A stretch of DNA of 64,000 bases from Planktothrix sp. FACHB-1365 (lineage in GTDB: Bacteria; Cyanobacteriota; Cyanobacteriia; Cyanobacteriales; Microcoleaceae). The stretch lies in the NCBI RefSeq assembly GCF_014697575.1, contig NZ_JACJSC010000008.1, positions 29,075 through 93,074 on the forward strand, written 5' to 3'. The translations under genes were made by a program, and so were the position numbers. The notes beneath the pieces were generated by a model. It worked only from the letters and a program-made list of their open reading frames with translations, was not told where the DNA came from and did not search any database. Shown piece by piece: positions 22,664-61,914 of the stretch; within the stretch, counting starts at the first letter, position 1; every line of letters begins with the position of its first letter.

Positions 22664-22800
22664 AAATTCGAGGAGATAAATGGGTGTATCGCCAAGAAAG
22701 AGCGATGATTGATATAGCACTACATTTTTTAGTTATAGCAATGATAACTTAGCGTTTAGAATTTCTTTGTGTTCTTTGTATCTTTGTTGTAGAATTATGC

Positions 22801-23406
22801 TTGTCATTTGTAAATACAATAGCGCGAATTTCTATATATTATATTGAGATGGGTGAAAGATTTAATACTGTTAAAACAGAAGTTAAAAACTGGAGAAATT
22901 TTACACTAAATAGTGAAATTTACGATTTATCGCATCTAAATGCCCATTCGGTTGAATATCGTGATGATAGAGACAAAAATAACCTAATTACATATAAATT
23001 TATAGTAACCTATGGCTTACACTGCTTTACAAAAGAATCGGAAGATCTTACAGAGGAAGAATCACAATTATTAATGTATAAGGGGCCAAGAGAGTCCAGA
23101 CCCTTTAATTTGGAGAGATATGACCTATCAAAGCAGTTACCTGAAATTATCAAGGCACTTGGTCAGAGTGCAACCTTAGTCTGTCATGCAGGGTATGGAA
23201 ATTATGCAATTGTGAAAGTTGTGGACTCCAAGGGTGTTAAAGTTGATTATTTTGTTGTTTTTCAAGTATTCAAGGAAAGTAAAAAGCTAAGACTCCATGT
23301 AACAAGTGCATATCCTAAATACGAAGGTATAGGGAAAATAAAGAAAGTCAATTTCTTCGTTATAGCTAAGAATTTATTGAATAATAAGAAACTACCGAAG
23401 CCTTGA
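22801..23406 (+). CDS. Hypothetical protein in a low-GC islet
   Basis: 201-aa ORF with no recognisable motif. Strongly AT-rich codon usage unlike flanking genes. Followed by perfect hairpin aaggctcc-ttaa-ggagcctt (23413..23432). Confidence 0.35.
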   Translation: MSFVNTIARISIYYIEMGERFNTVKTEVKNWRNFTLNSEIYDLSHLNAHSVEYRDDRDKNNLITYKFIVTYGLHCFTKESEDLTEEESQLLMYKGPRESRPFNLERYDLSKQLPEIIKALGQSATLVCHAGYGNYAIVKVVDSKGVKVDYFVVFQVFKESKKLRLHVTSAYPKYEGIGKIKKVNFFVIAKNLLNNKKLPKP

Positions 23407-23652
23407 ATAACAAAGGCTCCTTAAGGAGCCTTCGCCAAAAACTTGTTTATATTTTTGGTATTCAGATCGTCTTTACCGGACTTGCCTCGACCCTAAAGGG
23501 TAACGGGATGTCATGATTATCTCATGTCTGCTGCATCCATACTTCTAGTATAGAGAGTGGTTTTAATCATGTCAAGTCCCGCCTCTAAACCACTGCCACT
23601 ACTAGGCAGAGATCATCGCTGATTTTAACGTTATATTTAATTTAATCAGGAA

Positions 23653-25885: not shown

Positions 25886-26623
25886 ATGATTGTTTGCCCT
25901 AATTGTAATTATCAAAATCCAGAAGGCGCGACCCAATGTGAAGCTTGTTATACGCCTTTGCCTTCGATGACCAGTTGTCCCCATTGTGGGGCGACGGTAC
26001 AAACGGATGCGGCTTTTTGTGGTCAATGTGGGTCGAATTTACAGCCTGCATCTACCCCAACGAATCCCGGTGAAAACGAAGGCTTGATTCCGACTTTGGT
26101 TACCCCCCCCGATGAACCCCTAGCTGAACCTCAGCCTCAACCTGTGCTCAGTTCCGGGCCGAATTTAGAAAAATCTCCGGCTGTTCCGGCGGCGACGGTA
26201 ACGACTCCTCCGGCGGTAGTGACCGTCGGGACGGTTGCAGAACCCCCAGCCAATATAGCTCAAGGTTTTCAGGCGGCGGCGACTCAGTTACAGCGACAGG
26301 CGGCGAAGTTGATTCATGTTCAAACCAATGCCACTGTAGAATTACCTCAAAATGTCTCGGTGATTCATTTAGGAAAACCCAATGATTTAGTGCCCCCGGA
26401 TGTGGATGTTTCGGGATTTCCCAACTCAGAAATTGTTTCTCGCACCCATGCTGATATTCGGATGGAGGGCGATGCGTACTATATTGAAGATGTGGGCAGT
26501 TCCAATGGTACTTATATTAATAATATTTCTCTTCCCAAAGGAAATCGACATCGGTTAAGACCGGGCGATCGCATTTCTTTAGGAAAAGGAGATTTAGTTT
26601 CGTTTATTTTTCAACTGTCCTAG
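25886..26623 (+). CDS. Double zinc-ribbon + FHA domain protein
   Basis: N-terminal CPNC…CEAC and CPHC…CGQC zinc ribbons, Pro-rich linker, C-terminal FHA (…ISRTHADIRMEGDAYYIEDVGSSNGTYINN…). Confidence 0.7.
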   Translation: MIVCPNCNYQNPEGATQCEACYTPLPSMTSCPHCGATVQTDAAFCGQCGSNLQPASTPTNPGENEGLIPTLVTPPDEPLAEPQPQPVLSSGPNLEKSPAVPAATVTTPPAVVTVGTVAEPPANIAQGFQAAATQLQRQAAKLIHVQTNATVELPQNVSVIHLGKPNDLVPPDVDVSGFPNSEIVSRTHADIRMEGDAYYIEDVGSSNGTYINNISLPKGNRHRLRPGDRISLGKGDLVSFIFQLS

Positions 26624-26869
26624 AGGATTCAGAACTCAGAGTACAGGGGCAGAGGGTAGAGGGTCGTTCAGTACAAAATAGTAACGTACCCGTTATCAAT
26701 GAATGCCCAACTGCACGAGAGGTTTTGAAAGCCGGGATTTTTGGATGGTGGGGGGAAATCTTAATCCTGAATCGCCCTATATCCCCATCCAAAATCTGAG
26801 ATTTCCCCTTTAAAATAAGCTTAGGGCGTAGCTGTTGATTGTTAGATTTTGCCAATGTCAGCACCCCGC

Positions 26870-27090
26870 TCTGAAGAGACGGGGCTTCATGCCTCTAACT
26901 TTAGATAACTGACCAGCTATAGCCTAACGGCTACGTTTTCTGGATCATAATACCCACGAATGCGACGCTAGTTTGTGGCTCTATTGTTAACAATTAAACA
27001 GTTTTACGAGGGGTAAGACAGTGTTGTTAGCGCAAAAAGTTCGGAAAACATTGGCGAAGCGAACATTACCCTAGAAATAGGAGTTATTTT
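26870..27090 (+). ncRNA. Putative IscB omegaRNA (non-coding region immediately 5' of iscB)
   Basis: Established knowledge that the IscB omegaRNA is encoded directly upstream of iscB. This ~220-nt region has no ORF and abuts the iscB start. Structure not verified. Confidence 0.35.
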
Positions 27091-28368
27091 ATGTCTAATT
27101 ACGTCTTTGTAATTGATACAAATAAACAGCCTCAAAACCCAGTACATCCTGCTCAAGCTCGATTGTTATTGAATCAAGGTCAAGCTGCGGTTTATCGTCG
27201 TTATCCGTTTACTATTATCTTAAAGGAGTCAAAACCCGAATTAGAAATAGAACAAATCACTCTTAAAATTGACCCCGGTTCAAAAACCACTGGAATTACA
27301 TTAGTTCAAGGAAACAAAGTAATTTGGGGTGCGGAATTAACTCATCGAGGTCAAACAATTAAAATGTCTTTGGAATCTCGATGTTTATTACGTCGCTCCC
27401 GAAGAAATCGTAAAACTAGATATCGTCAACCTCGATTTCTGAACCGAAAACGTTTAGAAGGTTGGTTAGCACCCAGTCTTCAGCATCGAGTAGAAACAAC
27501 TCTAACTTGGGTCAGTAAATTAATTAGGTTTGCACCTATTCGTTCAATCATTCAAGAGTTAGTCAGATTTGACTTACAACAACTTGAAAATCCTGAGATT
27601 TCAGGAATTGAATATCAACAAGGCGAGTTACAAGGATACGAAGTTCGGCAATATTTATTGGAGAAATGGAGTAGAAAATGTGCTTACTGTGGGGTTAAAA
27701 ATACACCCTTAGAAGTGGAACATATTCACCCTAAATCCCAAGGCGGAACTGACCGAATTTCCAATCTTACTGTTGCTTGTCATGACTGTAATCAAAAGAA
27801 AGGAAATCAAGATATTCAAGATTTCCTATCAGGTAAACCTGACTTACTGCCCCGGATTTTGAAACAAGCTAAACAACCGTTAAAAGATGCTACAGCCGTT
27901 AATTCAACCCGATGGTTACTGTTTAATCGCTTAAAAGAAACGGGTTTACCTGTTTCAACTAGCTCCGGTGGTTTAACTAAATTCAATCGCACTCGATTAA
28001 ATCTACCTAAAACCCATTGGCTAGATGCAGCTTGTGTTGGGAAAGTTGAAACTTTAAAGGTGTTAACCAATAAACCTTTATTGATTCTGGCAACAGGACG
28101 TGGCACTCGTCAAATGTGTGGTACAGACAAATACGGATTTCCAACACGACATCGCTCACGAATACAGATTCACAAAGGCTTTCAGACGGGCGATATTGTT
28201 AAAGCTGTTGTTACTAAAGGTAAGAAAATAGGCTTTTATTTAGGTCGAGTTCTTTGTCGCGCATCTGGCAGTTTTGATCTTGTTACTCCTCATGGAAGAG
28301 TAGCAGGAATTAGTCACAAATATTGTCAATCAATTCATAAAAAGGATGGTTATTCTTATGGATTCTAA
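27091..28368 (+). CDS. iscB: IscB RNA-guided nuclease (OMEGA system; RRXRR/HNH/RuvC)
   Basis: PLMP-like N-terminus (…AAVYRRYPFTIIL), RuvC-I KIDPGSKTTGITL, Arg-rich bridge helix RRSRRNRKTRYRQPRFLNRKR, HNH CAYCG…LEVEHIHPKSQGGTDRISNLTVACHDCNQKKGN, RuvC-III HWLDAACVG. 425 aa. Confidence 0.85.
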   Translation: MSNYVFVIDTNKQPQNPVHPAQARLLLNQGQAAVYRRYPFTIILKESKPELEIEQITLKIDPGSKTTGITLVQGNKVIWGAELTHRGQTIKMSLESRCLLRRSRRNRKTRYRQPRFLNRKRLEGWLAPSLQHRVETTLTWVSKLIRFAPIRSIIQELVRFDLQQLENPEISGIEYQQGELQGYEVRQYLLEKWSRKCAYCGVKNTPLEVEHIHPKSQGGTDRISNLTVACHDCNQKKGNQDIQDFLSGKPDLLPRILKQAKQPLKDATAVNSTRWLLFNRLKETGLPVSTSSGGLTKFNRTRLNLPKTHWLDAACVGKVETLKVLTNKPLLILATGRGTRQMCGTDKYGFPTRHRSRIQIHKGFQTGDIVKAVVTKGKKIGFYLGRVLCRASGSFDLVTPHGRVAGISHKYCQSIHKKDGYSYGF

Positions 28369-28394
28369 AAGAACTCAGGCGGTTAAAACCGCTT

Positions 28395-28964
28395 TTGTCC
28401 CGGTTTTCCTCCTCGCTCGCTTATAGACGAGGCTTCCAACCTTCCCATGTTTTTCTTGTGATTAAACTAACATTATTACATCCTCTCCAATCGATTCCTG
28501 TCCGCAGTTGGGTCTTTAAAAAGGACAATGTGATTCGGATTGGGCGATCGCTCAAAAATGATGTTGTTCTCTATAGTGCGGTTGTGTCTCGGTATCATGT
28601 CGAGATTCGTCGCCAAAGTGAAGATTGGGTTGTTGTGAATCTGGGAACTAATGGAACCTATGTTAATGGACAAGCGGTTCAAGAAGTTCCCTTAGTCGAT
28701 GGACAAGTGATTCACTTAGCCATATCGGGGCCCAAAATTCTCTTAAATATTCAACCTGATCCGACAGAATTGATTTTTACTGGAGGAATAGAGGTGCATC
28801 ACTCATCCCAGCAACAGGAACATCAGCCAGAACCCGTGTATTCCGTAGAAGTTTTAACTTCACCCGGAGTTTCCTCTGATCCATTGTTTCCCAGTCACAC
28901 GGAAGAGACAACGGAGGTTGATCTGCGTAAACAATTGATGCTTCCTACCAATTACCCGGTCTAA
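28395..28964 (+). CDS. FHA domain protein (start uncertain)
   Basis: FHA core VIRIGRSLKNDVVLYSAVVSRYHVEI…NGTYVNGQAV. The 5' end overlaps sequence adjacent to the IscB element, so the true start is unclear. Confidence 0.5.
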   Translation: MSRFSSSLAYRRGFQPSHVFLVIKLTLLHPLQSIPVRSWVFKKDNVIRIGRSLKNDVVLYSAVVSRYHVEIRRQSEDWVVVNLGTNGTYVNGQAVQEVPLVDGQVIHLAISGPKILLNIQPDPTELIFTGGIEVHHSSQQQEHQPEPVYSVEVLTSPGVSSDPLFPSHTEETTEVDLRKQLMLPTNYPV

Positions 28965-61120: not shown

Positions 61121-61453
61121 ATGACTGTAAAACCCGCCCCATGCTCAGAATCTACTCTCACAGATCGTTATCAGACTACAATTCCTGAGCCGATTCGCAA
61201 AGCTCTGGGCTTGAATAAACGTGATAAAATTTGCTACACCCTCCAGTCTGACGGTCAAGTCGTCATTTCTCGTACTGACACAACAGAAAATGATCCAATA
61301 CTTGGAGAATTTCTGAATTTTCTAGCACAAGATATTAAAAACAATCCTCAGCACTTAGAAACACTTAGCTCTGATTTAGTCAACCGTGTTCAGTCGTTGG
61401 TTTCTGATGTTGATCTGGATCTGGATGCACCACTTTTGGATGAGGATGAGTAA
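61121..61453 (+). CDS. PrlF/SohA-family (AbrB/SpoVT fold) antitoxin
   Basis: TTIPEPIRKALGLNKRDKICYTL swapped-hairpin motif and acidic C-terminal tail. Immediately upstream of the YhaV-like gene. Confidence 0.6.
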   Translation: MTVKPAPCSESTLTDRYQTTIPEPIRKALGLNKRDKICYTLQSDGQVVISRTDTTENDPILGEFLNFLAQDIKNNPQHLETLSSDLVNRVQSLVSDVDLDLDAPLLDEDE

Positions 61454-61455
61454 GT

Positions 61456-61914
61456 GTGTTTGTCAATCAACCGCTTGTCATTAATGGGTGGAATCTATTT
61501 GCTCATCCTCTATTTCTTAACCAGTTTGAAGAACTTCTGACCCAGGTTGAACAGTTGCGCCAGAAGTATCCTCAAGACTACAAAAAGAAAAACGCTACAA
61601 AGCGTCTAGCAGCGATCGCAAAGTTAGCATTTGATACTATTCCTCAAGATCCAACCCGTAGCGAGTATCGTCAAGGGAGTACCCTTGGAGATGATTACAA
61701 ACACTGGTTTAGAGCAAAATTTTTTCAACAATATCGGTTGTTCTTTCGATTTCATCAAGAAAGCAAAATAATTGTCTACGCTTGGGTTAACGATGAAAAC
61801 TCTAAACGAGCTTACGATAGTAATACAGACGCTTATCGAGTTTTTAAGAAAATGCTTGACAGTGGCTATCCTCCTGATAATTGGGATGATTTACTCAAAG
61901 AGGCAACTAGCTAG
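61456..61914 (+). CDS. YhaV-family toxin (RelE/ParE-superfamily ribonuclease)
   Basis: …AWVNDENSKRAYDSNTDAYRVFKKMLDSGYPPDNWDDLL and HWFRAKFFQQYRLFFRF match YhaV conserved blocks. GTG start 3 nt after the antitoxin stop. Confidence 0.6.
   Translation: MFVNQPLVINGWNLFAHPLFLNQFEELLTQVEQLRQKYPQDYKKKNATKRLAAIAKLAFDTIPQDPTRSEYRQGSTLGDDYKHWFRAKFFQQYRLFFRFHQESKIIVYAWVNDENSKRAYDSNTDAYRVFKKMLDSGYPPDNWDDLLKEATS

Follow-up and report, generated by a model that had tools for sequence, protein, structure and literature searches.

The question raised by the locus described here is whether an RNA-guided nuclease gene situated between two FHA-domain genes of Planktothrix sp. FACHB-1365 belongs to a complete mobile element, has been taken over by its host, or is left from an element that no longer moves. 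The gene, iscB, whose product is known as the ancestor of Cas9, lies in a stretch of 64,000 nucleotides of contig NZ_JACJSC010000008.1 (positions 29,075 to 93,074), which is referred to as the window; all coordinates given below are window positions unless a related locus is named. An original prediction made from the sequence had proposed an IscB protein of 425 amino acids (aa) with a probable omegaRNA directly upstream, and had suggested a domesticated or non-autonomous copy. In the present analysis window positions 26857-28457 were interpreted, with a probability of about 0.9, as a non-autonomous ISC2 insertion which encodes IscB and its omegaRNA and which shows the geometry of restorative homing. 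The element belongs to a family that has been described well; what is new is the insertion, and present-day pipelines would assign it the right annotation. The features of the insertion are as follows (+, forward strand).

26841..26856, +, predicted guide segment of the omegaRNA, GTTAGATTTTGCCAAT; host flank directly 5′ of the element
26857..28457, +, whole non-autonomous ISC2 element (IS200/IS605 superfamily), about 1601 bp; flank-to-flank alignment with two insertion-free loci (L083, L084)
26857..27069, +, omegaRNA scaffold, Rfam HEARO RF02033 (cmscan); its 5′ end is the transposon end, 5′-GTCAGC
26864..26884, no strand, subterminal imperfect hairpin at the omegaRNA end (CCCCG-C-TCT GAAG AGA-CGGGG); DNA fold
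27070..27090, +, linker from the end of the HEARO model to the iscB start, with a small hairpin and a Shine-Dalgarno sequence
27091..28368, +, iscB gene, 425 aa; Pfam, NCBIfam and PDB matches and residue conservation
28378..28392, +, conserved hairpin GGCGGTTAAAACCGC shortly 3′ of the iscB stop codon; recurs at this position in many copies of the family
28411..28432, no strand, subterminal imperfect hairpin at the other end (CCTCG-C-TC ... GA-CGAGG), the left end by IS200/IS605 convention; DNA fold
28433..28457, +, last 25 nt before the element ends, CTTCCAACCTTCCCATGTTTTTCTT, closing with a T-rich run; similarity to the related loci L085 and L001 runs through it and stops at GTGA
28458..28461, +, GTGA, target site and putative target-adjacent motif (TAM), its GTG probably being where the downstream FHA gene starts; empty sites

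The IscB protein

The open reading frame (ORF) at 27091..28368 was assigned to IscB in agreement with the original prediction, family models and solved structures leading to the same identification. The protein matched Pfam RRXRR (PF14239) at residues 5-178 (E=1.4e-73, 246.9 bits versus a cutoff of 25) and Pfam HNH (PF01844) at residues 197-240 (E=3.7e-13), and it covered the complete profile (1-314 of 314) of the NCBIfam equivalog NF040563 'RNA-guided endonuclease IscB' with 473.2 bits versus a cutoff of 175. The top matches in the PDB were all IscB structures (TbaIscB 4.7e-45, HfmIscB 2e-29 and OgeuIscB 7.6e-25), while structures of IsrB and Cas9d ranked after these with much weaker scores. 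Together with the RNA match described below, these scores are far beyond chance.

The domain order starts with a PLMP-like N-terminus, of which residues 4-45 align with the counterparts in TbaIscB, HfmIscB and OgeuIscB, followed by RuvC-I (D61), an Arg-rich bridge helix (RRSRRNRKTRYRQPRF) and RuvC-II (E156). The second half consists of the HNH insert (C197/C200/H211/N225/C230/C233/N234), RuvC-III (H309/D312) and a C-terminal beta-rich region. All motifs that had been quoted in support of the assignment, YRRYPFTIIL, IDPGSKTTG, the bridge helix and HWLDAAC, are present in the ORF. The HNH motif (CAYC...H211...N225...CHDCN) contains the expected C-x2-C…H…N part, and only its tail had been misread, as H-x2-C-N instead of H-x-C-N.

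The residues D61, E156, H211, H309 and D312 were aligned opposite D61, E193, H247, H340 and D343 of OgeuIscB, whose RuvC and HNH catalytic residues were listed by Kato et al. (PMC9640706). Loss of catalytic residues relative to this enzyme had been named as a finding that would count against the assignment; all five are in place. Residue conservation was scored in an alignment of 47 IscB family members, in which D61, E156, H211, H309 and the HNH zinc cysteines C197, C200, C230 and C233 are invariant and D312 is conserved in at least 90%. Every residue that is invariant in the family is present in this copy, and the reading frame of 425 codons is uninterrupted. The protein is predicted to act as a nuclease and to cleave its targets, with RTGA as its putative preferred TAM. 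The view that automated annotation labels such genes only as HNH endonuclease is outdated, as NF040563 and the NCBI records of close homologs carry the name 'RNA-guided endonuclease IscB'.

Two related identities were rejected. The HNH insert between RuvC-II and RuvC-III is the feature which separates IscB from IsrB, and the IsrB structure 8dmb matched residues 7-167 alone. The Cas9 models TIGR01865 (22.8 bits versus a cutoff of 100) and NF049971 for Cas9d (44.7 versus 375) matched the HNH region alone; the 425-aa protein is without a recognition (REC) lobe, the window gave no match to a CRISPR or tracrRNA family of Rfam, and iscB is flanked by FHA genes.

The omegaRNA and the region upstream of iscB

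The covariance-model scan of the region upstream of iscB returned the HEARO family over its full length (model positions 1-211 of 211) with 155.3 bits versus a gathering threshold of 83 (E=5e-34), and this was the sole Rfam match in the whole window. An omegaRNA had been expected in the ORF-free region upstream, which was right; the RNA starts 13 nt 5′ of the position 26870 from which it had been drawn. Its 3′ end is located 21 nt before the iscB ATG on the same strand. In an alignment of 18 family copies (alignment A3), double compensatory changes were observed in 25 of the 45 predicted omegaRNA pairs. The covariation and the family match together answer the question, raised with the prediction, whether a structured RNA is present upstream. 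HEARO RNA was later recognised as the IscB omegaRNA (Meers et al.).

As the first base of the element is also that of the scaffold, the guide would have to be copied from the host flank. The predicted guide segment GTTAGATTTTGCCAAT occupies the last positions of this flank (26841..26856), a length of about 16 nt being assumed for this copy from the work on OgeuIscB, in which the guide has about 16-17 nt (PMC9640706).

In the linker between the end of the HEARO model and iscB, a hairpin CCTA-GAAA-TAGG (27070-27083) overlaps the Shine-Dalgarno sequence AGGAG at 27079-27083. In other copies this hairpin is changed on both sides (CCCG..CGG and CCAA..TTGG; alignment A3, assessed by eye). As 3′ structural elements are omitted from the Rfam HEARO model (Meers et al.), the hairpin could be the missing 3′ element of the omegaRNA, or it could serve the translational control of iscB.

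Ends of the element and the empty insertion site

In order to compare the locus with its relatives, a genome scan was performed which yielded 331 loci, and the best 80 were kept. Their proteins share 62-78% identity; 79 of the loci are labelled as cyanobacterial or as uncultured metagenome-assembled genomes (MAGs) and one as a Ktedonobacteraceae MAG. Nucleotide similarity of the window locus to its relatives starts sharply at 26856-26857. All family copies open with GTCAGCACCCC, and the preceding 60 nt are unrelated between the copies and without conserved motif. From GTCAGC the similarity extends to ...TTTCTT, just ahead of RTGA. The closest relative that was found (P0121/L085, 93% identical) resides in an unrelated gene context; its alignment to the window runs from 26854 to 28461 and no further, and its terminal sequences are identical to those of the window element. 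The ends 26857 and 28457, which it had been proposed to locate by alignment to other copies, were thereby fixed with the help of related loci and empty sites. Due to TGT at both joints, the junction is ambiguous by 1-2 nt.

Both ends carry subterminal imperfect hairpins, which are described as Y1-transposase binding sites (Kapitonov 2016). By IS200/IS605 convention the hairpin at 26864-26884 marks the 'right end', and it doubles as the first stem of the omegaRNA. A bulged architecture is common to both end hairpins, and GGCTTC follows each. The stem of the left end co-varies in family tails (CCCTGCGC..GCGACAGGG and CCCCATGTC..GCCAGGGG). The order of the family tail is a small hairpin, the bulged hairpin with GCTTCC, about 20 nt to a T-rich run, and RTGA, where the similarity ends. 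The small hairpin after the stop codon (28378-28392) shows compensatory stem changes in the family, e.g. GGCGACTGAAGTCGC and GGGGACTAAAGTCCC. It was below the criteria of the terminator scan; it may terminate transcription weakly or contribute to RNA stability.

The terminal RTGA was located by an anchor on the post-hairpin motif, with 8 loci corrected by hand. The statistics on RTGA and start codons are based on 64 copies with the canonical tail and exclude about 15 loci whose tail is short and of another type (..TTAGAGGCGTAGCGATCGC..). The flank logo over the 64 copies reads R-T-G-A (A in 59/64) followed by A (39/64). Among the related loci, L056, L059, L061, L063, L064, L068, L071 and L073-L075 have no canonical left-end hairpin tail. 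In this subgroup the copies stop a short distance past the stop codon, at ..TTAGAGGCGTAGCGATCGC.., a sequence that includes GCGATCGC, the HIP1 palindrome of cyanobacteria; the ends may be truncated or immobilised, or may represent a different end type.

Insertion-free loci were available from two genomes, P. tepida PCC 9214 (L083) and P. serta PCC 8927 (L084). The empty sites read ...GCCAAT|GTGATTAAAC..., with a single GTGA (GCCAAT|GTGATT). Joining the left flank of the window element (to 26856) with its right flank (from 28458) gives the empty-site sequence ...TTGTTAGATTTTGCCAAT|GTGATTAAACTAAC... with no duplicated bases. Because the empty sites carry a single GTGA, this motif is host sequence. 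In both species the guide segment GTTAGATTTTGCCAAT runs directly into GTGA at the empty site; guide and putative TAM are thus brought together when the element is absent. The insertion is polymorphic, being present in the window and absent from two Planktothrix genomes. Several genomes of relatives hold more than one copy (best 80 of the 331 loci). Because of these multiple copies in related cyanobacteria and of the unrelated context of the closest relative, the lineage is considered mobile, and the window element is presumably mobile at present as well.

The original prediction had noted that no Y1 transposase gene (tnpA) is nearby. In agreement with this, neither the genes next to the element nor any of thirteen stand-alone ORFs (100-210 aa) in the whole window proved to be one, and the syntenic annotation of P. 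tepida shows none either. According to the preprint of Meers et al., about 1.5% of iscB genes adjoin tnpA and about 98.5% do not. A non-autonomous copy is therefore supported by two intact ends, by the empty site in sister species and by the usual absence of tnpA from iscB loci. This half of the earlier alternative 'domesticated or non-autonomous' was borne out, and nothing points to domestication.

Proposed mechanism

The arrangement is consistent with restorative homing, which was shown experimentally for Geobacillus elements (Meers et al.). In these elements the omegaRNA is bounded by the transposon's right end, and IscB shares its TAM with TnpA. IscB elements also tend to follow the orientation of the upstream gene (Meers et al.), and the window locus fits this tendency. 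The omegaRNA would presumably be transcribed and processed together with its 5′ guide (about 26841-26856) from the host flank, either by read-through from the upstream FHA gene or from another promoter. Read-through from this co-directional gene is the simplest source of the transcript. Excision of the element by a TnpA acting in trans would rejoin the flanks as ...GTTAGATTTTGCCAAT-GTGA..., a site composed of a 16-nt match to the guide followed by RTGA as TAM 3′ of the target. This rejoined site would be cut by the IscB-omegaRNA complex with its HNH and RuvC active sites. The copy would then be restored through recombination, for which a sister chromosome that has kept the element would serve as partner.

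Alternative explanations

Several observations weigh against a complete and functional insertion. The window contains a single copy of the IscB element, the promoter and terminator scan gave nothing above shuffled expectation, and it revealed no sigma-70-like promoter upstream. The PLMP motif is PQNP in this copy versus the family consensus PLxP. In the left-end hairpin the loop at 28418-28424 is GCTTATA versus TGAAGA in L085, with the stems preserved; the loop of L085 is the same as that at the other end of the window element. The C-terminal 108 residues of the protein gave no sequence match to solved IscB, even when a family profile was compared to PDB sequences, and the alignment stops at residue ~318-343. 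An AlphaFold2 (AF2) model based on 55 homologs from databases, none of them less than 72% identical, was poor, with a predicted local distance difference test score (pLDDT) of 52 and a predicted template modelling score (pTM) of 0.24. In this model residues ~360-415 are beta-rich with pLDDT 72-81, and its top Foldseek matches are IscB structures at a template modelling (TM) score of just ~0.2, which is weakly supportive of the assignment; WED and TAM-interacting domains are plausible constituents of the modelled C-terminus. Because of the unmatched C-terminus, the poor model, the PQNP motif and the different loop, the copy may, with low probability, be stranded or decaying, i.e. it looks intact and is immobile or nuclease dead for reasons such as the lack of a compatible TnpA, the changed loop or the diverged PLMP region. 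The occurrence of a single copy without tnpA in 64 kb would fit this explanation, as would the clear pseudogenes among the family members: in L038 (6001-7761) the matched region is crossed by 11 stop codons or an insertion, and in L080 (6001-7278) a stop lies 3 codons before the end. It is opposed by the uninterrupted frame of 425 codons with all invariant residues, by an omegaRNA score far over the threshold, by the preserved hairpin stems and by terminal sequences identical to those of the closest relative.

Still less probable is a domesticated IscB, immobilised and used by the host, e.g. for RNA-guided regulation or for defence linked to FHA signalling genes. The position between two functionally related FHA genes and the lack of tnpA in the window would agree with such a role, and related TnpB nucleases are reported, according to the title of PMC10705468, to have been turned into regulators. 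However, the site is empty in the two closest available genomes, and the FHA-FHA linkage is therefore older than the insertion. Both transposon ends and hairpins are intact, and so are the catalytic residues, unlike in nuclease-dead domesticated forms. The guide is plain flank sequence which matches the empty site, as in mobile copies, the lineage occurs at many unrelated sites, and iscB without tnpA is normal. An HNH or McrA-type restriction or defence endonuclease standing alone, such as a Septu PtuB-like protein without RNA guide, was dismissed. Homologs are named 'HNH endonuclease' or 'McrA' in several sources, and PADLOC PtuB models match residues ~175-245, but these matches are limited to the HNH insert of ~60 residues, whereas the rest of the protein fits RRXRR, the IscB equivalog and IscB structures, and the cognate omegaRNA lies directly upstream. 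A non-autonomous ISC2 insertion encoding IscB and its omegaRNA is thus the preferred explanation of the locus.

Association of the RTGA target with host start codons

Within the GTGA target, the GTG shares the reading frame of the downstream FHA gene and is located exactly where the homologs of Lyngbya and Microcoleus begin (MI[KT]LTLLHP; M/V-I-K/T-LTLLHP), and it is probably the start codon of this gene. The Planktothrix annotations start the gene at a TTG six codons upstream of the GTG; under this annotated start the insertion would have occurred after codon 6.

The terminal RTG opens an ORF of at least 100 codons in 26 of the 64 copies (41%), a count which includes orthologous and hence non-independent copies (e.g. 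L022 and L041) and is based on crude gene calling. Besides the window copy these are L005, L013, L017, L021-L023, L025, L026, L029, L031, L032, L036, L041, L044, L045, L049-L054, L062, L067, L077 and L079. All of the 10 sampled ORFs are real genes with the first Pfam domain at the N-terminus, among them genes for GlgC, a succinyl-CoA-ligase-type CoA-binding protein, and DICT and CHASE3 histidine kinases. Expected frequencies were derived from RTGR sites in the host flanks of the same loci:

18%, RTGR sites at which any ORF of 100 or more codons begins
1.7%, RTGR sites at the head of an ORF of at least 100 codons
7%, start-codon sites among 'tolerated' RTGR sites, i.e. those that are intergenic or at a start codon

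Compared to the last of these values, the observed 41% corresponds to an about six-fold excess (binomial p ~5e-14). In the Microcoleus subfamily the start-codon location was found in just 1/15 copies. A Shine-Dalgarno-like motif in the left end was present in 12/26 start-codon copies versus 9/38 others, which is not significant (Fisher p=0.10), and it is absent from the window copy.

A preference of the cyanobacterial ISC2/IscB lineage for residing exactly at host translation starts is accordingly possible and is put forward tentatively, with the odds somewhat against it. If true, the element would replace the entire 5′ untranslated region (UTR) and the promoter-proximal region of the host gene, and the expression of this gene, here in FHA signalling, would hang on read-through from iscB. 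The T-rich and sometimes GGAG-containing left end would then act as a surrogate translation-initiation region, and the omegaRNA guide would always correspond to the former 5′-UTR of the host gene. The target motif would lower the cost of insertion, and host genes would become coupled transcriptionally and translationally to a selfish element, an insertion strategy that would be cost-minimising and possibly gene-rewiring. The association may be new, and may be the only part of this analysis worth further work. The relation between target and start codon is not mentioned in Kapitonov et al. 2016, and no mention was found in the literature searched, a scope outside of which are Weinberg 2009 and Altae-Tran 2021.

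Host context

The insertion is flanked by two host genes, and Pfam FHA was found in both, as the original prediction had stated.

25886..26623, +, host zinc-ribbon and FHA gene, same direction as omegaRNA and iscB; Pfam FHA, DZR and Zn_Ribbon_1
28458..28964, +, host FHA-domain gene, intact and outside the element; Pfam FHA, 5e-18

The downstream FHA protein is 96% identical to that of P. tepida PCC 9214 (P0001, 100% of the query) and 83% identical to that of P. serta PCC 8927, and the DNA on both sides of the element is 94-96% identical to the P. tepida chromosome, which places the source genome in Planktothrix near P. tepida. Both species have the same FHA-FHA gene order, with the genes adjacent and no iscB between them. 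In the intergenic region at ~26751-26760, ~100 nt upstream of the insertion, P. tepida has ~25 nt and P. serta ~130 nt in addition. The open frame of the downstream FHA gene runs 21 codons back into the element tail and reaches a TTG at 28395, so that a 189-aa chimera with a transposon-derived N-terminus may be reported by gene callers.

For the exact IscB protein and the exact upstream FHA protein no record was found in a large sequence collection; the ThiO-like neighbour protein had an exact match on two short Logan contigs alone. Elsewhere in the window, a variable islet at 22666-23617 contains an ORF (22801..23406, 201 aa) with no Pfam or PADLOC match. Its counterpart in P. tepida (L083 750-2664) encodes an AAA_15/AAA_21 ATPase with a PADLOC match to HEC-01A/AriA-like proteins (E=3e-23), a 198-aa partner with a weak HEC-01B match and a 52-aa gene product, and looks like a candidate defence pair. 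Adjacent genes for a PrlF antitoxin (110 aa, E=2e-42) and a YhaV toxin (152 aa, E=1e-64) are located at 61121-61914.

Comparison with known systems

The identification of the element itself adds little: filamentous cyanobacteria harbour thousands of IscB/HEARO elements, current NCBI models name them automatically, their structures have been solved, and a model of their biology has been tested. The copy is of use mainly as a clean natural example, in which the ends are exact, two sister species have the site empty, and the guide together with the TAM reconstitutes this site. With 425 aa its IscB is also compact, and its putative TAM is RTGA(A). Compared to the HEARO RNA of Rfam (RF02033), the match is of full length with the same stems, and here a small hairpin over the ribosome-binding site of iscB follows the end of the model. 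The HEARO family was reportedly first described, in 2009, mostly from cyanobacteria.

The complex of OgeuIscB with its omegaRNA (7xht, 7utn, 8csz) is alike in domain order, catalytic residues and Arg-rich bridge helix, as well as in a large omegaRNA encoded 5′ with a 5′ guide. OgeuIscB has 496 aa versus 425 aa here, where about 36 residues of the REC-linker (Ogeu ~116-143) are lacking, and the C-terminal ~108 residues of the window IscB have no detectable sequence similarity to it. The TAM of OgeuIscB is NWRRNA/NNRR, whereas RTGA(A) is predicted for the window copy. GstIscB of Geobacillus stearothermophilus (Meers et al. 2023) likewise belongs to a non-autonomous IS200/IS605 element with an omegaRNA bounded by the right end, a flank-derived guide, a TAM which is the transposase target at the opposite end, and a gene upstream that runs in the same direction. 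Its TAM is AT-rich (TTCAT-like) versus RTGA here, and its mechanism was established by experiment, whereas that of the window element is proposed from its sequence.

To the cyanobacterial ISC2 elements described by Kapitonov, Makarova & Koonin (2016, J Bacteriol) from Geitlerinema sp. PCC 7105 and Coleofasciculus chthonoplastes PCC 7420 there is structurally no difference, and one of the related loci (L018) originates from the Geitlerinema PCC 7105 genome. The 5′-GTCA terminus and the insertion at GT|GA or N|ATGA targets without target duplication were reported for ISC2 in that study (Kapitonov et al. 2016) and are shared by the window copy, as are a single HNH-bearing iscB, a length of ~1.3-1.7 kb, subterminal imperfect hairpins, and the absence of terminal inverted repeats and of tnpA. 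With respect to the published ISC2 elements, the window copy represents a new insertion site in a Planktothrix genome.

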